The notes under the pieces: model-generated
The model's input: the letters and a program-made list of their open reading frames with translations, nothing else
Databases searched by the model: none
Told to the model about the DNA's origin: nothing
Translations under genes and position numbers: made by a program
Source: Bradymonadia bacterium
GTDB taxonomy: Bacteria; Myxococcota_A; Bradymonadia; UBA7976; UBA1532
Assembly: GCA_046290225.1 (NCBI GenBank)
Contig: JBKAGE010000078.1
Location: forward strand, 352,001-416,000
Reading direction: 5' to 3'
DNA: 64,000 nucleotides
In this document: positions 11,687-29,747 of the stretch, one piece after another
Numbering within the stretch: the stretch's first letter is position 1
Layout: each line of letters starts with the position of its first letter

Positions 11687-12339
11687 TTCTCTCACTCCTG
11701 CATCTGCTCACCGCCCTCCCCGGCGGCTTTGGTGATCGAGCCGACGAGGTCTTGATCAAGAAAGCCCTTGGAGGCCACAGCGGCGCTCTGCGCATGCTGG
11801 CGCGGCGTATTCTCCCAGTCATCAAGGCCCGGGCGCTGGCCTACACCCGTCGCCGTGGTGGTGATCTGGGAGTACACGACGCCGATGATCTCGTTCAGGA
11901 GATCTGGCTGACCCTGCTCAGCGATGACGGCCGTCTACTCAAGACCTATGACGCCACCCGGGGCAAATCCCTCGAGGGCTATGTCGGCCTGATCTGTCGT
12001 CGTGAGCTGTGGCGTCGTGCCCGGGCCCACGGCGCCATCCGCCGTGGAGGCGAAGCCCAGATCGCCCCCCTCGAAGCAGCCGCCGAGGCCCCGACCTCTG
12101 CCCCCGATCCCGAAGCCATCGTCATGGGGCAGAACCTGCTCGATGGTCTCTCGAGCTATCTGAGCGAGCAGCTGCCCGAGCGCGGCCGCCTCGTGCTCTC
12201 GGCCATCTACGAAGACCACCTCGAGCCGGCGAAGGCTGCGCAGATGATGGGGGTCAAGGTGCAGGTCGTGTACAACTGGCAGCACAAGATCCGCGGACTC
12301 ATCAAAGCCTACTGCGCCGAAGCTGGGGTGGCGGTCTGA
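11683..12339 (+). CDS. ECF-type RNA polymerase sigma factor
   Basis: Region 2 (DADDLVQEIWL...YDATRGKSLEGYV) and region 4 HTH (AAQMMGVKVQVVYNWQHKIR). The ORF track starts at TTG 11752; the start is inferred at CTG 11683 because the DEVLIKKALGG motif begins upstream of that TTG. Confidence 0.9.
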   Translation: MILSLLHLLTALPGGFGDRADEVLIKKALGGHSGALRMLARRILPVIKARALAYTRRRGGDLGVHDADDLVQEIWLTLLSDDGRLLKTYDATRGKSLEGYVGLICRRELWRRARAHGAIRRGGEAQIAPLEAAAEAPTSAPDPEAIVMGQNLLDGLSSYLSEQLPERGRLVLSAIYEDHLEPAKAAQMMGVKVQVVYNWQHKIRGLIKAYCAEAGVAV

Positions 12340-15056
12340 GGGCCCTACTTCGCTCGCACGCGCTGTGGATCTGCAGTGTGCTGGCCCTCTGCGCATGTCA
12401 GAAGGCACCAGAGCCGGCGCCAGCCCCTGCACCTCTCGAAGCGCTCATCATCAACCCCACAGCGCTGATTCGCGAGGGCACGAACGCCCAATACTGGCTC
12501 ACCCCTGGACGCAGTCTGCTCGTACAACTGAACGCGTCGAGTATCGCGGGCGCCTGGACTCTACACCTGCCTGATCGCAACATAGCCGGCAAGGTGGCTG
12601 GTCCATCAGTCCTCCGGTTTGAGCTGCCAAGCTCTATCCCACAGCCCCCCGAACGCGTTGAGCTGCGCTTGATTGGGCCCGGGCGACGGGAGATGCGCTG
12701 GCTGGTCCGATGGGTCAGTGATCCCCCACCTGCACGTCAAAAAGCTGCCCGCCTGAGCCGGGCAAGTGCCCGAGAGGCACTGAAGGCGCTCGGCTCGATG
12801 ACGCCGGAAGACTCAGTCTGGGCAACGCCGTTCAAGGCGCGGCTCAAGACGAGTCTCGAAGGGCCTCGCGCCGGTGTCGAAGCCTGGCTTGAAGGCGCCA
12901 GACTTGCTGGCACCCATGGTGTCCTCTCAGAACAGATGCGCAATCTGCACATCGCCGCCCACATGGCAGTGGGTGCCCAAATGTTCTCAGAAGCGAGCGA
13001 GGTTTTGGCTCAGGCCAGAGATCTCAACGTCTTTGACATCCAACCCCGCAGTCGATGGGACAATCAACACGCCCAGAGCTACCTCCATGCTCAGTTGGGT
13101 CAATGGATGCTCAGCAGACGTGCCCTCGAAGGCGCTCTGGCCGGTTATCGAGAGGCGGGGCTCTCGAACGAGGCAGCGTCAGCAGGCAACTCTCTCGCGT
13201 TGTTGCTCTCTGATTTGGGCCATCATCGTATCGCGCTGGAGGTGCTCAAGGGTGAAGTCGATCCTGATGCTCTGCCCACTCACCTCCAGCTTCTGCGAAA
13301 CGTCAACCTCGGCTGGATACTGCTCCGCGGCGCAACGGAGCGCATGTGGCCCCTGGACGAGGCAAGGCTCACCTCGCTCTTCACAGGCGCCCTGGCCTAC
13401 GCTCAGGAGGCCCATGGTGACCTGGATGTCGCCAACATCCGCGCCAACCTCGCCCTCACAGCCATCCTCGCAAACAACCTCGCCGAGGCCGAAACCCACC
13501 TCACCGCAGCCGAAGCCGCTGATCCTCGGGGAGAGAGTTTCGCCGCTCTGTTCATCGCTCGCCTCAAGGGTGAACTGGCCCTAGCGAAGGGAGACGCCCA
13601 GCAAGCGCTCGAGATCTTCGCAGTTGCTGAGCTGCTGGCCCGACGCAAGGCCAACGGAGACTGTGAGGACTGTTGGCGAGGCGCCTGGGGCAGCGGCCGC
13701 GCAGCGCTGGCCCTCGGCAACAGACAACACGCCCTGGAGATCTTCCGGCGAGCCATCGATGAGATGGATCGGCTCGCCCAATTTGCCTCGGTTACCGAAG
13801 ATCGAGGGCGCTTCAGAGCTGACCGCCGTGACCTCGTCGATGACACGCTCAGGTTGCTGCTCCACGATGCATGTGGTGCCAAAGGCCCCTGCCTGGACGA
13901 AGCCTTTGCCCTTGCAGATGCGCGGCGGGCAGCCCCCCTCGACGATTTGCTCAGTCGACTCCAGGCCGACCATCTGTCAGCCACCGAAGCACAACACCGA
14001 CGTGCCCGCATCGACGCCGCTCGGCAAGCTCAACGCGAGCTCCGCACATTGGTGGAGCGTGGCGCGGTCGTCCCTGAATCCGAACAGGCTCAGTGGCAGG
14101 CAGCCCACGTCCAGGCCAAAGCCGCCCGGGATGCAGCCTTCGAGGATGCGTTTGCCTTCGCCGGGCCCGCCAGCGGGGATCCCCAACAGCACAGTCCGCA
14201 CTCGATACGTCAGCACCTGGGCGATGACGCGGCCCTGCTCCTGATCACCCCCCTCGATGAAGGCTGGTACAGCTTCTGGCTCGACAACACCGTCCTCCGC
14301 GGTGCGGCGATCACCGACGACCCACTCGCACCCTGGACCGACGCCCTCAAAGACATTCGACACCTGTACGTGGTACCTGGAGGGCACCCCAAAGGCCTTG
14401 CCATCGCCACTGACGCCCTTGGGGATCGACCACCCCTCCTCAAGTCCCACACAGTGGCTGTACTGCCGCATGGCGGCCTGCTCAACGAGAAAGCCGCCAC
14501 GGCATCGGGGCCACCTGTCATCATCGCTGACCCGAGAGGCGACCTCTCTGGAGCAGCCGAGGAGGGCCGCCAGCTCGCCACACGCTGGCCTGATGCGCAG
14601 GTGCTCTCGGGCCCGCGCGCCAGAACAGCCCCAGTCCTCGATCACCTCACGCAGGCACGTAGGGTGCATTTCGCCGGCCACGGCGTCTTGCACAGGGCCG
14701 ACCCGTGGGCCGCCCACCTCGCGCTCTTCGACACCGACACCCTCGACGTGTACGCCATCCTCACCCACCCGGTGCCCAGCGAGCTGGTGTTTCTCAGTGG
14801 CTGTGAGACCGGCGTAGATGATGTGATCCTCGACGAAGAGATCGTGGGCTTGCCCGAGGCGTTTCTCGCTGCTGGGGCACGCTCCGTGGTGGCCACCGCC
14901 CGGCCCGTGGCCGATCGCTCTGCCCGGGCCTTCGCCCGGCACTTCTACGATCACCTCGACGCGGGCCCTGCTGCAGCGCTCAGGGCTGCGGCGTTGGCCC
15001 TCGAGGCCGAGGGTGATCCACACTGGACGGCCTACAGGCTGATGGGGAGGCGCTGA
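12336..15056 (+). CDS. TPR-CHAT protease 1, predicted lipoprotein
   Basis: CHAT dyad VHFAGHG / FLSGCETG, AFLAAGARSVVA and a TPR-like helical middle. The signal LRALLRSHALWICSVLALCAC begins at a CTG overlapping the sigma stop (start inferred). Confidence 0.88.
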   Translation: MRALLRSHALWICSVLALCACQKAPEPAPAPAPLEALIINPTALIREGTNAQYWLTPGRSLLVQLNASSIAGAWTLHLPDRNIAGKVAGPSVLRFELPSSIPQPPERVELRLIGPGRREMRWLVRWVSDPPPARQKAARLSRASAREALKALGSMTPEDSVWATPFKARLKTSLEGPRAGVEAWLEGARLAGTHGVLSEQMRNLHIAAHMAVGAQMFSEASEVLAQARDLNVFDIQPRSRWDNQHAQSYLHAQLGQWMLSRRALEGALAGYREAGLSNEAASAGNSLALLLSDLGHHRIALEVLKGEVDPDALPTHLQLLRNVNLGWILLRGATERMWPLDEARLTSLFTGALAYAQEAHGDLDVANIRANLALTAILANNLAEAETHLTAAEAADPRGESFAALFIARLKGELALAKGDAQQALEIFAVAELLARRKANGDCEDCWRGAWGSGRAALALGNRQHALEIFRRAIDEMDRLAQFASVTEDRGRFRADRRDLVDDTLRLLLHDACGAKGPCLDEAFALADARRAAPLDDLLSRLQADHLSATEAQHRRARIDAARQAQRELRTLVERGAVVPESEQAQWQAAHVQAKAARDAAFEDAFAFAGPASGDPQQHSPHSIRQHLGDDAALLLITPLDEGWYSFWLDNTVLRGAAITDDPLAPWTDALKDIRHLYVVPGGHPKGLAIATDALGDRPPLLKSHTVAVLPHGGLLNEKAATASGPPVIIADPRGDLSGAAEEGRQLATRWPDAQVLSGPRARTAPVLDHLTQARRVHFAGHGVLHRADPWAAHLALFDTDTLDVYAILTHPVPSELVFLSGCETGVDDVILDEEIVGLPEAFLAAGARSVVATARPVADRSARAFARHFYDHLDAGPAAALRAAALALEAEGDPHWTAYRLMGRR

Positions 15057-18000
15057 TGAGCAGACATCTCTTCTCACGGTTACATGCCGGGCTGTTCGCC
15101 CTCGGGCTGTTCGTCTTCGTGCTGGGCATCGGAGTCGGGCACGCCGAAGATGACGAGTTCGTGAGCGACGAGGCCATGGAGGCCCTGGCAAAGTTCCAGC
15201 AAGGGCAGAGCCTCTTCGAGGCGGGTCAGGTGGATCGCGCCCTCACGCTCTTCTCCGAGTCCCTCCCCATCGTGGAGACCATTGTGGCGCCGGATTCGCC
15301 GGGGGACATGGGTGACGCCTACTCCACCGTAGCCCGGTCGGCCTATACCGCGGAGCGCTTCGAGCTCGCAGACCAATGGGGCGTACGGGCCTTCGAGCTA
15401 CATCGCAAGGCGCACAAGGGGCATCACCCGAGCGCGGTTCAGGATCTCGATCTGCTCACCGCCACTGCCATGGCTCGAGGCCGATACTTCGAAGCGAGCG
15501 AGCGTCTCGAACAGGCCCTCGTCGTCATCGAGGCCCTCGACCCTTCTGATCCACGGCGCTCCGCAGGGCCCTCCGCAGTGGCTCAGGCCTTTGCCGAGCA
15601 CGGTGCCCGATCACTCGCTTCGAAGTGGTATGCCCACGCTCTGAAGGCCACTGAGGCGCAATTCGGCGCGGATCATCCCAACACCGGGATCGTCTTGAGC
15701 AACCAGGGCAGGCATCTGCTGGCCATTGGCGATCACCGCGGCGCAGCAAAGGCCCACCTCAGGGCCATGGAGATCATGCGCGCCCAGTATGGCGAGGTGC
15801 ACGCCGACACAGCTCGGACCATGGGCTACGCCGGCTGGTCCCTGCTCCACGCTGGGCAGCTGGCGAAGGGACGAAAACTCCTGGAGCAATCTCTCGCCAT
15901 CGAAGAGCAGGTGCACGGCCCGGAGCATGCCGAGGTCGCCGATACGCTGGTCGATCTCTCCGAGCTGTACCTGCACATTGGTGACATCCAACGGGCGCGC
16001 ACGCTGCTCGATCGCGCCGTGGCGATCAACGCAGCAAAGTTGTCGGAGGATGATCCGGACAGAGCCCGAGCGCACTTTGCCCTCGGTGCACTGCACTACA
16101 CCCAAGAAGACTACGACGCCGCCGAGACGCAGCTCACCCTCGCGTACACGCTGCTCACGGCGAAGGGCGAGGCAGGCAGCCAGCTGACTCACCTGCGCTA
16201 CGCTCTGGGATACCTGAAGGCCGAGCAGGGGCAAATCTCGGAGGGCATCGAGCTGCTGAAGACCGCCCTCGAAGAGAGCCAGGGTGAGGGCGGCAAGGCG
16301 AGTCAGCGGGCGCTCTATTCTGCCTTCCTTGGAGAACTCTACGTCCGCGATGGCGATCTCGACGCCGCTCGACCCTACCTCGACGATGCCCTCGCCTACA
16401 TCGAAGGGGCGGATCTGCCCGTTCATCCCTGGGCCGTCTACATGCGCTATGCCCTGCTGGCCCACGTGGACGATCGCCTGGCCACAGCCATCTTCTTCGC
16501 CAAGAAGGCGGTCGCTGCGTTGGAGAGCAGCCGCCGTGAGGTGGCCAGTATGACTGGCGGTGCCCTCGATCACTTCGACGGGACTCATCGACCCACCTAC
16601 GAGCTGCTCGCCGATCTGCTCATCGAGGCAGGCAGGCTCCTGGAAGCGCAGCAGGTCCTCGACTTGCTCAAGCAGGCAGAGTTCAGAGCATTCACGCGCT
16701 CGGATCCTCGGGGGCCCTCTCTCACATGGAACGCTCGAGAGCAACCGATGGTGGTCCGTCGGGAGTCTGGCGGACCCAAGGGCGGCTATGTGGAGATCAC
16801 GCACCGTCTCGCCAGCGCAGGCCGGGCCTACGAGGCGCTGCTCGCCCGAAAGCGGCAGGCCCTCCGAGAAGGTCGCCCCTGGGCCGAGGCGCAGGAAAAA
16901 GTGCTTCAGACCCTCCGCAGCGATCTCGGGGCAGCCCGAAGCGCCTATCTCGCCCAACTCGCTCAGCTCGAAGAGACGCTGAAGGCCAGAGACGACGGCG
17001 ATCTGCTCGGAAGACACCAGCTCAAGCGGCTCAGTGCGCTCCAGAGCACGCTCCGCCGCATCGGTGAGGGTACCGTGCTGGTCCACGCCCTCATCACCGA
17101 TGACGCATTGCACCTGCTGCTCACCACCCCAGGCGTACAGCTCGTGCGGACTGTACCGATCAAGCGCGCGGACCTGTACCGCGACATCCACACCATGCGA
17201 CAGGCCCTCGCCTCCCCCTCGATGCCGATCCACGACGCCGCCGGGCGCATGTACAAGCATCTCGTCGCCCCGATTCGCGAAGATCTCCGCCAGGCAGGCG
17301 CACGGACGATCTTGTTCGCTCTCGATGGTCCGCTGCGTTACCTGCCCCCTGCGGCGCTGTATGACGCCAAATCGAAACGCTACCTCGTCCAGACCTTTGC
17401 GGTGGCCCACTACACCGAGGCTTCACGCAACACCCTGGAGCGCGATCGCCAGCGCCTGGCCTCCGCCGCAGGCTTGGGGCTGAGCAAGGCTCAGGGTGGG
17501 TTCTCCCCTCTCCCAGCAGTGGGGGAAGAGCTCGATCGGCTGGTCAAGCAGGGGCCGGAGGACGAGGGTGCGATGCCTGGGGTGGTCCATCTCGACGAAG
17601 CGTTCTCCAGAGATGCTCTCGTTGGGGCCCTGGAAGATCGACATCCGGTGGTGCACGTGGCCAGTCACTTCGCCTTTCGCCCAGGCACTGAGGACGATTC
17701 CTATCTCTTGCTCGGTGATGGGCAGCGACTCTCCATCGCCGAGCTGAGATCTGGGGCGTTCCGCTTCGACGAGGTCGAACTGCTCACCCTCTCGGCCTGC
17801 GAGACCGCGCTCTCCACCGGCGCCGACGGTCGAGAGATCGATGGCCTCGCCACCGTGGCACAGGACCGAGGGGCCCAGTCGGTCCTCGCCAGTCTCTGGC
17901 CTGTGGCCGATGTGAGTACTGCCCGACTGATGGGCCACATGTACCAGCGGCTCGTCACCGGCGAGGGCAAGGCCCAGGCCCTCAGGCAAGCGCAGCTGGC

Positions 18001-18169
18001 CCTGCTCAACGGAGAGATTGGTGGCGTCTCCGAGGTGGCAACCACACGGGGCATCGTCAGAGATGGCCCACCGGCGAAGGCTCGCGACGTCTTTGTCCCG
18101 CCCCCTGACGCTCCATGGGCACACCCCTACCACTGGGCCCCGTTCATCCTCATGGGTCACTGGCGATAG
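15056..18169 (+). CDS. TPR-CHAT protease 2, secreted
   Basis: Sec signal (…VLGIGVGHA|EDD), kinesin-light-chain-type TPRs (FGADHPNTG, HGPEHAEVA), CHAT dyad VHVASHF / LTLSACET, ASLWPVAD and HPYHWAPFIL. TGATG overlap with the upstream stop. Confidence 0.93.
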   Translation: MSRHLFSRLHAGLFALGLFVFVLGIGVGHAEDDEFVSDEAMEALAKFQQGQSLFEAGQVDRALTLFSESLPIVETIVAPDSPGDMGDAYSTVARSAYTAERFELADQWGVRAFELHRKAHKGHHPSAVQDLDLLTATAMARGRYFEASERLEQALVVIEALDPSDPRRSAGPSAVAQAFAEHGARSLASKWYAHALKATEAQFGADHPNTGIVLSNQGRHLLAIGDHRGAAKAHLRAMEIMRAQYGEVHADTARTMGYAGWSLLHAGQLAKGRKLLEQSLAIEEQVHGPEHAEVADTLVDLSELYLHIGDIQRARTLLDRAVAINAAKLSEDDPDRARAHFALGALHYTQEDYDAAETQLTLAYTLLTAKGEAGSQLTHLRYALGYLKAEQGQISEGIELLKTALEESQGEGGKASQRALYSAFLGELYVRDGDLDAARPYLDDALAYIEGADLPVHPWAVYMRYALLAHVDDRLATAIFFAKKAVAALESSRREVASMTGGALDHFDGTHRPTYELLADLLIEAGRLLEAQQVLDLLKQAEFRAFTRSDPRGPSLTWNAREQPMVVRRESGGPKGGYVEITHRLASAGRAYEALLARKRQALREGRPWAEAQEKVLQTLRSDLGAARSAYLAQLAQLEETLKARDDGDLLGRHQLKRLSALQSTLRRIGEGTVLVHALITDDALHLLLTTPGVQLVRTVPIKRADLYRDIHTMRQALASPSMPIHDAAGRMYKHLVAPIREDLRQAGARTILFALDGPLRYLPPAALYDAKSKRYLVQTFAVAHYTEASRNTLERDRQRLASAAGLGLSKAQGGFSPLPAVGEELDRLVKQGPEDEGAMPGVVHLDEAFSRDALVGALEDRHPVVHVASHFAFRPGTEDDSYLLLGDGQRLSIAELRSGAFRFDEVELLTLSACETALSTGADGREIDGLATVAQDRGAQSVLASLWPVADVSTARLMGHMYQRLVTGEGKAQALRQAQLALLNGEIGGVSEVATTRGIVRDGPPAKARDVFVPPPDAPWAHPYHWAPFILMGHWR

Positions 18170-18442: not shown

Positions 18443-19786
18443 ATGTCTGCCCCCCAAGTCAGGGAGAACCCACAACCGAGCCCCCTCGGCGTTCACGTGG
18501 CCCTCGTTTGGCGAAACACCATGCTCAAGGATGTGTGGATCCGTCCCGGCGACGCAGCCACCCTCGGCGCCGACCTGAACTGCACGTTCACGTTGCCCGA
18601 GAGCGCTGGAGTCATCGGCACACACACGCTGATTACTCATGATGAGATGGGCCCTCTCCTCATCCCCCCATCGGGCAGCTCCGGGCGCCGTGCCTCTGCG
18701 GCTCAGCTGGCCGCAGATGCCGCCCCCCTCGGCTCCGCCACGATCACACTGGAAGAAGGCGACCGCGGCACGCTCGACCTGGGCCCCTTCACGTTGGTGT
18801 TCCGCTGCGAGCCGCTGCCCGATCGACGCTTGATCCCCAGGGTGGCCCCCTGGCTCGCCTGGGACACGGGCCTGATCGGCGGCATCCTCACCGCCCTCGT
18901 GGGCCAGATGGCGTTTCTGATCGCAGCGTTCTACATCTGGGAGCCCACACCTGCCCTGGCCACGGCGGACTTCGCCGATCGTGACTTCGTTGTGCAGATG
19001 CAGTTGCTGCCGCCCGAGCCGGAGATCGTGGAGCCCGAATCCATCGAAGATGATGAGGGTGCCTCCAAGGCCATTGAGGGTGAGGAGGGTCAGGCAGGAG
19101 AGCCCGAGAAGCCGACGGAGCGACCCACCACCATCAAACGCAAGAAGGACACTGAGACCTCGGGCATGCCCCGCAAGGGTGTCTTTCAAGCGATGGACGG
19201 CTTGAGCAGCCGGGGACCAATGGGCGGCGTCTTCGACGGGGCTGATCGTCTGAAGAACGATCTCGACGCTGCCATGGCTGGGGTGAACGATTCCACCTTT
19301 GTGGGTCGAGGCAACGAAGGCCTGGGCATCAGGGGCACTGGCCCTGGTGGAGGCGGGCTGCACAAGATGGGCACCATCCAGGGGGTCGGGACCCGGTCAG
19401 GTCCCGGGCGCGGGGTCCGCGGCAAAGGGCTGAAGGGCCGGCGCAAGATGCCGAAGACGGTGAAGCCCGATCGCAAGCACGTCAAAGTGGGCGACTACTG
19501 CCGACAGAACGACATCATCAAGGTGGTCAACCGGCGCCAGCGCGGCCTGAAGTTCTGCTACGAGAAAGGTCTGCGAGGCAACCCCGAGCTCCAGGGCAAG
19601 GTCACCTTCTCGTGGCGCATCGGCCTGGACGGCAGGGTCATGAAAGTGCTCGTAGAGGACGACAGCCTGCAGGATCGAGAGGTCACGCAGTGCATGCAGC
19701 GTGCGGTGAAACGCTGGCGCTTCCCCCAGCCCGACGGGGGTCTGTGTCAGGTGCGCTTCCCCTTTGTCTTCAACGCCGGGCTCTGA
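18443..19786 (+). CDS. AgmX/PglI C-terminal (TonB-C-like) single-pass membrane protein, GltG-like
   Basis: Cytoplasmic N-domain, TM helix, Gly-rich linker (GLGIRGTGPGGGG) and C-terminal FCYEKGLRGNPELQGKV...WRFPQP...FPFVF. ATG 18443 follows GAGG. Confidence 0.85.
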   Translation: MSAPQVRENPQPSPLGVHVALVWRNTMLKDVWIRPGDAATLGADLNCTFTLPESAGVIGTHTLITHDEMGPLLIPPSGSSGRRASAAQLAADAAPLGSATITLEEGDRGTLDLGPFTLVFRCEPLPDRRLIPRVAPWLAWDTGLIGGILTALVGQMAFLIAAFYIWEPTPALATADFADRDFVVQMQLLPPEPEIVEPESIEDDEGASKAIEGEEGQAGEPEKPTERPTTIKRKKDTETSGMPRKGVFQAMDGLSSRGPMGGVFDGADRLKNDLDAAMAGVNDSTFVGRGNEGLGIRGTGPGGGGLHKMGTIQGVGTRSGPGRGVRGKGLKGRRKMPKTVKPDRKHVKVGDYCRQNDIIKVVNRRQRGLKFCYEKGLRGNPELQGKVTFSWRIGLDGRVMKVLVEDDSLQDREVTQCMQRAVKRWRFPQPDGGLCQVRFPFVFNAGL

Positions 19787-19805
19787 TCCCGCATACTCCC
19801 CGGCC

Positions 19806-20537
19806 ATGAACGCCACAACGCCTCTCCTCGGCGCCCCCGGCAAGGCCATCATGACCCTGGTCGAGCGGGCGATTCACGATCATCAACTCATCTCCCCTGG
19901 GGATCGCATCGCCGTGGGCATCAGCGGCGGCAAGGACTCCCTGCTGCTGGCCTGCGCCTTCAAGGCCCTCTCCCAGCGCTCCGATCTCGACTTCGAGTGG
20001 TGCGGGGTCCACCTCGACCAGCACCAGCCCGGCTTTGCCCGCGATCAGTTCAATGCCGCCATCGAGGCTCTGGAGATCCCGCTTCAGGTGGTCTCCGAGG
20101 ACACCTGGAGCGTGGTGGAGAGCAAGCTCGCGCCAGGGCAAATCCCCTGCGCGCTGTGCGGCCGCATGCGTCGGGGCATCTTGAACCGCTGGTGCGCTGA
20201 GCACGGCTTCAACACGCTCGCCCTCGGTCACCACCTCGACGATGCCATCGAGACCTTCTTCTTGAACCTTCTGTTTCAGCGAAAACTCGATCCGCTCAAG
20301 CCGGCCACGTCGGCGAGCGCACACCCGGTGACCACCATCCGACCACTCATTCTGGTGGAGGAGCGCAAGATCGTGGACTGGCGGGATCGTCATGGTCTGC
20401 TGCCGGTGCCCTGCCCGGTGTGCGACAGCTTCCCCGAGTCTCGACGGCGGGATCTCAAGCGACTGCTCGAGCAGTTCAAGCAGTTACAGCCTCACGTGGC
20501 CGCCTCGATCCGAGGGGCACTCTACGATCGCAGCTAG
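19806..20537 (+). CDS. ttcA: tRNA 2-thiocytidine biosynthesis protein (PP-loop)
   Basis: SGGKDS, CALCGRMRRG, ALGHHLDD, IRPL, CPVC. Confidence 0.85.
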   Translation: MNATTPLLGAPGKAIMTLVERAIHDHQLISPGDRIAVGISGGKDSLLLACAFKALSQRSDLDFEWCGVHLDQHQPGFARDQFNAAIEALEIPLQVVSEDTWSVVESKLAPGQIPCALCGRMRRGILNRWCAEHGFNTLALGHHLDDAIETFFLNLLFQRKLDPLKPATSASAHPVTTIRPLILVEERKIVDWRDRHGLLPVPCPVCDSFPESRRRDLKRLLEQFKQLQPHVAASIRGALYDRS

Positions 20538-21093
20538 CGGACGACCGCGCTGCGCGCCGTCTGTAGCGGACGGCCGTGCTACGCACCGCCTGTAGCGGAC
20601 GCCTGCCCCGGCTTACGCCGGCGCAAAGCTGTAGCGGACGCCGAGTCTGCCTGCGGCAGCCTGAGCTGTAGCTTTCTAAGAGAGTTGGGTGGGAGTCTTG
20701 GGCTTCTCAACCCAGGTTGGGGCTTACGCCGAAAGTGGTGTGTTAGAGCACCATAAACAAATACCTGCTGCGAACGCTTGTCTGGTGCTCCGATATGAGC
20801 TTCGCTGGTACTCGACGATGCTTTGGCATCGCCTGCGCCCACCGAAGCCCATCTCAAAACACCATCCTGCGCGTTCCCTAACAGTTATTTGTTTATGGTG
20901 CTCTAGGGGCCAGCAGCGTTTGCGGTAGATGAATCCACACACGCCCCCTCAACTGATCTTCAAAAAAGCTACAGGGAATTTGCCGAAGGCAAATGAGCGT
21001 CCGCTACAGCTCTCGCCGAAGGCGAGGCGTCCGCTACAGGCGCAGCGAAGCTGGGCCGTCCGCTACAGACGGCGCGCAGCGCGGTCGTCCGCT
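20536..21093. repeat. 558-bp symmetric element: inverted ~180-bp arms, each a tandem array of a 12-bp repeat plus GNA mini-hairpins
   Basis: Perfect 40-bp terminal inverted repeat 20536-20575 / 21054-21093. CTGTAGCGGACG at 20561, 20590 and 20629; its reverse complement at 20998, 21028 and 21057. Degenerate symmetry continues to about 20714 / 20921. Confidence 0.95.
20744..20905. mobile_element. Palindromic MITE (ERIC-like) with TA at both ends
   Basis: Perfect 20-bp inverted repeat TAGAGCACCATAAACAAATA (20744-20763) / TATTTGTTTATGGTGCTCTA (20886-20905). The interior is an imperfect palindrome around CGATGC-TTTG-GCATCG (20816-20831). No coding capacity. Confidence 0.75.
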
Positions 21094-22277
21094 CAGTCCC
21101 GCTCCACACAGAGCGCGATGCCCATGCCACCGCCGATGCACAGCGTGGCGAGGCCCTTCTTGGCGTCGCGACGGATCATCTCGTGCAGGAGCGTCACCAG
21201 CACCCGGCAGCCGCTGGCGCCGATGGGGTGACCCAGGGCGATGGCCCCGCCGTTCACGTTCACGATGGCCGGATCCCAGCCCATCTCCTTGTTCACCGCA
21301 CACGCCTGGGCCGCGAAGGCCTCGTTCGCCTCGACGAGATCGAGATCAGCCACGGCCCAGCCAGCCTTCTCGAGGGCCTTCCGGGATGCGGGGATCGGGC
21401 CAGTGCCCATGACTGAAGGATCAACACCGGCGGTGGCCCAGGAGACAATGCGGGCGATGGGCTTGAGGCCTTTCTCCTCGGCGAAGCCTGCGCTGGCCAC
21501 CACCACAGCGGCAGCGCCGTCGTTGATGCCGCTGGCGTTGGCCGCCGTCACCGATCCGTCCTTCTTGAAGGCCGGGCGCAGCCGGCCCACGGAGGCCAAG
21601 GTGGTCCCCGCCCGGGGATGCTCGTCGGTGTCCACCACGATGTCGCCCTTGCGGCCCTTCACCGTGTAGGGGGCGATCTCCGCTTCGAACCGGCCCTCAG
21701 CCATGGCGACCTCGGCCTTGTTCTGAGAGGCCACCGCAAACTCGTCCTGCAGCTCGCGGGTGATCTCGAACTGCTCGGCGACGTTCTCTGCGGTGATGCC
21801 CATGTGATAGTCGTTGAAGGCATCCCAGAGGCCATCGGTGATCATCGTGTCAGCGAGGGTGCCATTCCCCATGCGCAGGCCCGTCCGCAGAAGCGCAGCA
21901 TGTTGCGCCATGCTCATGTTCTCCTGGCCCCCCGCCACGACGACCTGCGCGTCACCGAGACGCACGGACTGAGAGGCCAACGCCACCGCCCGCAGACCCG
22001 AGCCGCACACCTGGTTGAGGGTGTAGGCGGTGCGCTCTTTGGGCACCCCAGCGCTCACAGCAGCCTGGCGCGCAGGGTTCTGGCCCTGGCCCGCCGTGAG
22101 CACCTGACCCATGACCACCTCATCCACCGCATCGGTGCTCACCTCGGCACGCTGCAGCGCGGCGCCGATGACGTGGGCGCCGAGGGCGTGGGCCGGCACC
22201 CCGCTGAGGCCCTTGCCAAAGGCCCCGATGGGGGTACGCACCGCACTGAGGATCACCGGCTGGTTGGGGTTGGTCAT
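21093..22277 (-). CDS. Acetyl-CoA C-acetyltransferase (biosynthetic thiolase, PhaA/AtoB family)
   Basis: [32 protein letters not shown] 22277 follows AGGAG. Confidence 0.95.
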
Positions 22278-22551
22278 ATCGCTCGCTCCTGTGGATGGGT
22301 GGATGATCTCCACCGGGTTTTGTGGAGCGATTGTACTCAAACCTTGGTGCGCCGCAACACAAACCACAGGCCCCATCACACCAGTTCACGCAGCGTGCAC
22401 CACACCCGCCAGACAGCAGATTACACCATCAGTTTTGATGACTTGCAGAGTCAGATTGTCTTGAGGACAGACTCCGCGGACACTGAGATGATTCCCGCTT
22501 CGTCTCATAAACCACTTGTGCACCGCACCATACACACCCTCAGGAGGTGTC

Positions 22552-23669: not shown

Positions 23670-29639
<5,970 letters not shown>

Positions 29640-29747
29640 CGTGGTGACTCCCTCTGCTCGAGCCTGCAACTGGCCCGTCGGAGGGAAAGTCGGTGGATCT
29701 ACCTAGGCTGATGATGGCTCATTCTGGGTCGACCCACTGGTGGGTGC

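Follow-up and report, generated by a model that had tools for sequence, protein, structure and literature searches.

A gene-less palindromic mosaic repeat between convergent ttcA-like and thiolase genes of a Bradymonadia bacterium, probably a non-autonomous variant tied to an uncharacterised cassette class

In this study, we asked what fills the gap between a ttcA-like gene and a convergent thiolase gene in a 64,000-nucleotide stretch of Bradymonadia DNA (the window), and how such a sequence could have come to lie there. An earlier note, made from the sequence alone, described a 558-bp non-coding element that occupies the whole gap between the two stop codons and is built from inverted arrays of a 12-bp repeat with hairpin spacers. 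This description is borne out: the stops lie at 20535-20537 (TAG) and 21093-21095 (minus strand), and the inverted arrays, the truncated terminal repeats and the outer periods of 29 bp are all present in the sequence (Table 1). The element overlaps both flanking stops, and the orthologs of the ttcA-like gene in relatives mostly extend a few codons further.

Table 1. Features of the element and its flanking genes (positions in the window)
Feature	Position	Strand	Remarks
ttcA-like gene (PP-loop, PF01171)	19764..20537	+	last two bases of the TAG stop are the element's first two bases
Left terminal truncated repeat	20536..20543	-	CGTCCGCT reading outward
Left arm, four hairpin modules	20544..20665	-	type string b-p-a-i (outward)
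Left-arm modules	20544-20560, 20573-20589, 20602-20628, head module 20641-20665	-	
Left-arm 12-bp linkers	20561-20572, 20590-20601, 20629-20640	-	
Conserved non-coding core, left part	20666..20745	.	starts CTGTAGCTTT, contains GGGGCTTACGCC block; homologous to family B core
Nested 158-bp MITE	20746..20903	.	terminal inverted repeats of ~22 bp; TA at 20744-20745 and 20904-20905
Small hairpin module within MITE	20811..20837	.	recurrent in other repeat families here and in other genomes of the class
Conserved core, right part	20904..20974	.	GCGGTAGATGA block, ends AAAGCTACAG
Right arm	20975..21085	+	type string d-c-k-i; GAA/GCA triloops on the plus strand
Right-arm modules	head module 20975-20997; 21010-21027, 21040-21056, 21069-21085	+	
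Right-arm 12-bp linkers	20998-21009, 21028-21039, 21057-21068	+	
Right terminal truncated repeat	21086..21093	+	CGTCCGCT; its T opens TCA, which on the minus strand reads as the thiolase TGA stop
Thiolase gene (PF00108, PF02803), convergent	21093..22379	-	

The window copy holds six exact CGTCCGCTACAG 12-mers (at 20561, 20590 and 20629 on the minus strand and at 20998, 21028 and 21057 on the plus strand) against 0.53 expected from shuffles, with spacers of 17, 17, 27 and 25 nt in the left arm and 23, 18, 17 and 17 nt in the right. Its terminal inverted repeat extends over 69 nt at 93% identity, the outer 40 nt being perfect, and its folding z-score is -19.8 relative to shuffles. What had been taken for two heads of about 50 bp are in fact the two ends of one asymmetric conserved core. 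The element lies between protein genes and not inside an rRNA gene; no match to a sigma-70 promoter or a terminator was found within it, and an Rfam search returned three matches with E-values of 0.24-0.84, far under the gathering scores. Other large genes of the window lie close by (23670-29669, minus strand, and 12009-18169, plus strand): they encode a surface protein of 1999 aa with Asp-rich repeats and two TPR proteins, whose C-termini we take to be CHAT-like.

A search of the genome (8.58 Mb, 99.4% complete) for the same repeat arrays, which the earlier note had called for, established that the element is multicopy. The family, here termed family A, comprises 197 exact CGTCCGCTACAG 12-mers at 45 loci, 31 of them with both orientations and 14 with one. 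Both ends could be defined in 27 copies, 24 of which measure 366-450 bp; two lack the core and the window copy is the longest. The family appears specific to this genome: the 12-mer is not enriched in any of 40 relatives, and an 11-mer of the linker occurs 204 times here versus at most 26 times in each of 400 other genomes of the phylum. Scans of sequence collections for linker arrays returned 3 viral, 35 GTDB and 8 metagenome stretches. On inspection these were plain tandem repeats or chance matches, in none of which inverted arms with spacers of the hairpin type were present, and they were rejected as family members. Family-A cores share 82% identity at the median and 95% at most, and their variation is rich in transitions and without adenine bias. 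A core HMM found no homologue at E <= 0.1 outside this genome among the loci compared, loci of another genome of the class (G080) reaching only E 0.83. As candidate functions of the core, a structured RNA was rejected for little covariation and a peptide-coding sequence for a frame broken by 1-nt indels.

As an element length, the 558 bp of the earlier note is correctly measured and atypical, since the window copy is about 160 bp longer than usual owing to a second MITE, flanked by a TA duplication, in its core. When the MITE was removed in silico, a normal 150-bp core remained that aligned to another copy without a gap at that point. The sole other copy of the MITE in the genome lies within a core of a sister family, family B (G000:C34:360961-361136), and both copies have TA on both sides; a search of the genome for the ends of the MITE found only these two short copies and no autonomous partner. 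Both copies sit in the core that families A and B share, at different positions, which suggests that the MITE targets elements of these families. The small hairpin module that the MITE contains is also present in several repeat families here and in about 20 other genomes of the class, in elements with different ends, and BLAST of the whole element against 112 other genomes of the class gave short hits only, nearly all of them to this hairpin.

The ends of the copies are sharply placed. After CGTCCGC, the next base is T in 63 of 69 ends, C follows in 63 of 69, and the triplet is TCA in 37. An end lies at most 30 nt behind the stop of an ORF of at least 150 codons in 52 of 69 cases, versus 4.4% of positions and 8.8% of TCA sites drawn at random, a null that takes in coding DNA, and 27 of 44 loci fall between convergent ORFs as judged by a codon heuristic. 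No replichore bias was seen (33 vs 33), nor, by eye and without an empty site for comparison, any direct repeat indicative of target duplication in the flanks of the 27 complete copies. A second family-A copy also supplies a thiolase stop codon (G000:C34:201797-202198). In none of 12 ttcA ortholog loci in relatives does a thiolase gene lie within 1.5 kb, so that there is no synteny for an empty-site comparison; a second locus, in G080, is likewise not syntenic in its congeners. No empty site was seen in the sequencing reads, which were searched as short contig pieces from two DNA runs (shares 0.09 and 0.08); one 261-nt skip with undefined letters between fits another copy of the family. Because the relatives are not syntenic at the locus and neither an empty site nor excision of a copy was seen, we infer the mobility of family A from its dispersion only.

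The arms follow a grammar. Across the family, 76 arms resolve into 268 modules in 24 clusters, of which about 12 are recurrent. Counted outward, slot 1 holds one of two head hairpins in 58 of 63 arms, slot 2 is drawn from one module class and the outer slots from another. The outward strand carries a C(GAA/GCA/AAA/GGA/GTA)G triloop in 205 of the 268 modules and is the more stable strand as DNA in 252 of them. Among 106 outer modules the closing pairs change together (GC..GC in 66, AC..GT in 40), while a G.G mismatch is retained in 104. Since d(GNA) loops closed by C:G are described as very stable in DNA (PMC3201870), we infer selection on single-stranded DNA hairpins in the arms. Against such selection it counts that predicted folds of whole elements favour arm-to-arm pairing, seen for 66 of 74 right-arm linkers, over the local hairpins, which form in 25 of 82 cases as DNA and in 15 of 82 as RNA.

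Within this grammar the arms are thoroughly shuffled. All 66 arms with at least three modules differ from each other, as do all 27 complete elements, and hybrid modules are visible among the module clusters. In the core, the four-gamete test is failed by 505 of the 780 pairs of informative sites, a count that recurrent mutation could inflate, and core distance is hardly related to arm distance (Mantel rho 0.15, p 0.078). An apparent avoidance of symmetry between arms, strong when the arms were left unoriented, was gone once they had been paired by head type (8 vs 10.4, p 0.19) and was discarded. With left and right arms paired in this way, module types are shared at chance level, and only 4 of the 27 complete copies end in the same module on either side. 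The perfect 40-bp terminal inverted repeat, which the earlier note had singled out, is therefore real in the window copy and incidental, and not a trait of the family.

The earlier note had further proposed a REPIN-like mobile family whose enzyme is encoded elsewhere, and we searched the genome accordingly for a RAYT, a reverse transcriptase, a transposase or a recombinase. In the 99.4%-complete assembly there is no match to PF01797, and NF047646 reaches only E 1.65; tblastn of 19 proteins with an HUH motif, taken from 30 Y1 loci of relatives, gave no hit. A profile search with PF04986 gave no match in any control genome and so has no bearing on the question. Among the 90 ORFs that flank the 45 loci, 37 of which have no Pfam match, no transposase, HUH protein, reverse transcriptase or integrase was found at E <= 1e-8, and by coordinates none of the eight tyrosine recombinase matches of the genome lies at a family-A locus. 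Two reverse transcriptase genes, a convergent pair (G000:C79:178718-180977) that is presumably retron-like, are adjacent to each other and remote from all 45 loci. An IS4-family transposase gene is inserted in an element with hexamer arms (G000:C50:55559-57127); it has 14 matching end pieces, those displayed lying at contig ends, which may suggest more, collapsed IS4 copies. In the family-A linker itself, GTAG lies 6 nt from the module stem, and a stem directly behind it is found only in the minimal copies at C51, C52 and C63. The idea of a REPIN-like family is hence upheld in that the elements are multicopy, gene-less and palindromic, with REP/BIME-like habits and no enzyme adjacent, and is not supported as regards the RAYT, given the missing PF01797 and NF047646 matches, the distance of GTAG from the stem and the absence of such arrays from all 36 Y1-HUH loci inspected.

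The genome contains at least four fold-back families. Family B comprises 38 paired cores that are homologous to those of family A (median identity 53%, with shared blocks); its arms differ from those of A and are likewise mosaic with outward GNA hairpins. The locus at C82 is a hybrid with one A arm, a core and one B arm. Both PF05635 genes of the genome lie between inverted arms, one, at C77, in family-B arms and frameshifted, the other in hexamer arms, and a 10-mer at the inner end of the C77 locus occurs 12 times in the genome, five of these in family-A loci. As to genes enclosed by other arm pairs, which the earlier note had wished to see checked, the family-A arms enclose no four-helix gene, and the family-B arms at C77 enclose the frameshifted one. 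In relatives, inverted arms surround 7 of 12 four-helix loci; in a larger set that overlaps with this one in part, they surround 16 of 29, mostly as plain arrays of 6-8-mers.

Several further loci were noted along the way. At G000:C36:153145-154952, an SMR/Qac-like efflux ORF and an ORF without assignment lie between inverted arms that belong to another family, together with a diverged second copy of the 3' end of a ferredoxin-like gene, the gene itself being located in the flank. Genome G008 has four near-identical four-helix genes with the same short downstream end in unrelated contexts (L061, L065, L069 and L071), which may be a sign of recent movement. A pair of upstream boxes (CGCAAC, then, after about 17 nt, CGATAA or CGAAAA) is common to several four-helix and some Y1 genes (L413, L414, L417, L420, L412, L400 and L408) and looks like a promoter.

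The same arm design, with unrelated linkers that partly lack GTAG, was found in three other genomes of the class, and in two of them it occurs both gene-less and around a four-helix gene. In G080, the family has a 9-bp linker, in which GTGG-A adjoins the stem, with shuffled outward GNA hairpins and about 134 nt between the arms; it gives 156 matches versus 0 in the control and is not enriched in 7 congeners. One G080 copy (C181) encloses a TIGR02436 gene with weak similarity to Avd and 2GSC as closest structure, and another arm pair encloses a resident phosphopantetheinyl transferase gene, which in two congeners stands behind the same upstream gene with no arm. G080 also has a RAYT-like gene (74.7 bits, cut-off 80), and the repeat on its flanks is another one. 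A scan of 400 genomes for the tandem-hairpin pattern flagged, among others, G062 (98 vs 1) and G069 (41 vs 14), and the stretches inspected in both hold inverted linker-plus-hairpin arms without GTAG, one pair being placed around a tRNA-Leu gene. In G062, one linker family (25 matches, control 1) flanks a four-helix gene and also occurs gene-less, and an arm design common to gene-bearing cassettes and to gene-less copies of the same arms is seen in G080, G062, G070 and family B. Two further observations were made in G080: a junction with a hairpin arm (L311 1190-1240) carries a short tandem repeat in the congener G079 (L301 1750-1900), and at G080:C399:250-1850 a low-GC segment with a lipoprotein-like ORF in it stands between arms that each retain half a core, as if foreign genes lay inside a core.

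The association was then compared between gene types by counting, as hairpin arrays, at least three outward hairpins within 330 nt on one side of a gene. Four four-helix and 11 Y1 loci without a hit or motif were dropped, duplicates were merged and Y1 starts were estimated. By this measure hairpin arrays are present at 9 of 60 four-helix loci, at 0 of 36 Y1-HUH loci and at 0 of 19 ttcA control loci. The Fisher p of 0.024 overstates this contrast because six of the nine positives come from G062 and three of the four positive genomes were inspected after they had shown hairpin arrays. Five four-helix loci, among them the C72 gene of this genome, have at least three such hairpins pointing inward instead. 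The comparison is suggestive, not proof, that hairpin arrays associate with four-helix rather than Y1 genes.

How, then, might the copies have arisen? One answer is an orphaned REP/BIME system, in which a RAYT (TnpA-REP) read GTAG plus hairpin and cut and joined single-stranded DNA at C|T. The mosaic arms would have been made and dispersed by this enzyme, whose gene was later lost or is missing from the assembly. TnpA-REP is described as cleaving at C|T, as requiring in E. coli a mismatch in the stem, as able to recombine BIMEs and as lost in some cases (PMC8266576, PMC3333891, PMC6006769), and REP ends as a frequent source of stop codons (PMC3733652). In agreement with this, the family-A linker carries GTAG on the strand with T-rich loops, the copies end exactly at the C|T of its CTAC, with the T that follows CGTCCGC in 63 of 69 ends, the G080 linker has GTGG-A beside its stem, and 9 of 27 relatives of the same taxonomic family have PF01797 matches. 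However, a Y1 gene is missing from a 99.4%-complete genome even though none of the relatives searched has the family and the linker is kept with little change, the 36 Y1 loci and the G080 RAYT-like gene lack such arrays, GTAG stands off from the stem by 6 nt, and the G069 and G062 linkers do without it, so that we consider this origin rather unlikely. Unlikelier still is a purely host-driven origin, with recombination and replication slippage copying and shuffling the arrays, selection retaining them behind genes for a role at transcript ends or in DNA structure, and four-helix genes as passengers. The position of ends behind stops (52 of 69 within 30 nt) and of loci between convergent ORFs (27 of 44), the pervasive recombination, the arms around a resident gene and a tRNA gene, and the 90 flanking ORFs without a mobile-element enzyme would all fit, yet it leaves unexplained the fixed ends, the slot order and the single loop polarity in four genomes with unrelated linkers as well as the arrival of copies at unrelated loci, and no terminator-like site is found in the element.

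Spread at the level of RNA has also been considered, in the manner of a 23S intervening sequence, with the arms pairing in a transcript, RNase III excising the element, and copies spreading via RNA and a reverse transcriptase in trans. Intervening sequences whose terminal stems are cleaved by RNase III can hold four-helix ORFs (PMC4990558), and here arm-to-arm pairing is predicted for most right-arm linkers (66 of 74) and the genome has two reverse transcriptase genes. Nevertheless, most copies lie at gene ends and many between convergent genes, so that transcription need not run through both arms, the loops that are conserved belong to the type stable as DNA, the transition-rich core variation has no adenine bias, and both reverse transcriptase genes are at C79, away from all 45 loci; this makes such a route improbable. 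It is more improbable again, to the point that we would be surprised by it, that the element is an ordinary MITE moved by a DDE transposase reading the terminal 8-10 bp: symmetric ends, a gene-less core, a size of about 400 bp and an IS4-family gene in the genome are what such a MITE would lead one to look for, but no target duplication was seen in 27 complete copies, the arms are mosaic with no two elements alike, and no transposase lies in or beside them.

The explanation that we prefer is that the element is a gene-less copy of a four-helix-bundle (TIGR02436/PF05635, Avd fold) fold-back cassette that spread via single-stranded DNA and was reshuffled by recombination, and we would give this reading as a whole an even chance. 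Membership of the element in the four-helix cassette class appears somewhat favoured, while a causal role of the four-helix protein is put forward tentatively. Copies would spread by way of DNA in single-stranded or cruciform form, where the C(GNA)G hairpins would be the recognition signal; an Avd-like protein, acting in trans or since lost, would bind the hairpins and recruit a putative nicking/joining activity; insertion would occur at a TC(A) site just behind genes; and recombination at linkers and within shared hairpin stems would reshuffle the arms. It is conceivable, although we are inclined to doubt it, that Avd-like four-helix genes form an undescribed class of mobile or domesticated elements, each gene with its own repeat family as RAYTs have their REPs, in which the protein reads C(GNA)G hairpins on one strand and drives gene-less fold-back spread, the element being one such copy. 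The link of four-helix genes to family A is indirect, through family B, whose gene is frameshifted. Against the four-helix reading stand, moreover, the majority of four-helix genes, which have plain 6-8-mer tandem arms or none, and the similar arms that enclose the phosphopantetheinyl transferase gene and the tRNA-Leu gene.

A lead for what such a protein might do comes from papers on diversity-generating retroelements (DGRs). The four-helix family is described as having no known function (PMC4990558), PF05635 as resembling Avd (PMC10053308), and the DGR target signal as a DNA hairpin with a GC stem of free sequence and a conserved GRNA loop, with Avd named as a possible contact (PMC3240598). 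Both have stems that are GC-rich but otherwise free in sequence, a G..A loop conserved on one of the strands, and an Avd-fold protein in the wider system; in contrast, DGR loops are 4-nt GRNA (PMC3240598), and here no template/variable repeat pair, linked reverse transcriptase or adenine-biased variation is seen.

Other known systems resemble the element in part. With the E. coli REP/BIME repeats and TnpA-REP (PMC3333891, PMC8266576), it shares intergenic mosaic hairpin repeats, a stem mismatch, GTAG/CTAC, C|T ends and adjacency to stop codons; unlike in those repeats, the constant part here is a non-palindromic 12-bp linker, the hairpins vary, each arm is a head-to-tail array and the two face each other across a fixed core, 6 nt separate GTAG from the stem, and no tnpA-REP was found. 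Pseudomonas REPINs likewise have an inverted pair as unit, a whole-element hairpin and a species-specific family, but are described as near-identical REP doublets about 70-110 bp apart with a cognate RAYT (PMC3116915), whereas here an arm is made up of 3-5 hairpins that differ from each other, one arm varies independently of the other, and the search for a RAYT gave none. Neisserial intergenic mosaic elements (dRS3 plus RS; PMC1797815) also place a constant short repeat between reusable spacers and show array recombination and nested repeats; there dRS3 is itself an inverted repeat and the RS spacers are about 50-150 bp, whereas here they are triloop hairpins of 14-32 nt, each with its set slot in an element that has two arms and defined limits. 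The ORF-bearing 23S rRNA intervening sequences with S23p (PMC4990558) are matched by the gene-bearing relatives of the element in having a four-helix gene between complementary ends, while the element itself is not in rRNA, has no ORF and has long hairpin-module arrays as arms. Thus the element resembles BIMEs, REPINs and neisserial elements in habit and is not filed with them because the tests for a RAYT and for GTAG no more than 2 nt from the foot of the hairpin failed.

Taken together, the element is real and is probably a non-autonomous palindromic repeat variant tied to an uncharacterised cassette class. No description of the hairpin-array design or of its four-helix link was found in open-licence PMC and bioRxiv text; what is new here is the form with hairpin modules, their strand polarity and shuffling, and the difference from Y1 genes. 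Palindromic repeats confined to one species are as a rule credited to RAYTs or DDE transposases, and here is a one-genome family without either. Its design recurs with unrelated linkers around a gene family without known function and, if the link is causal, would give that family a role and connect the target hairpins of DGRs, rRNA intervening sequences and intergenic repeats. If the link is not causal, the family is still a clear example of a mosaic repeat with slot order and DNA-hairpin strand polarity.
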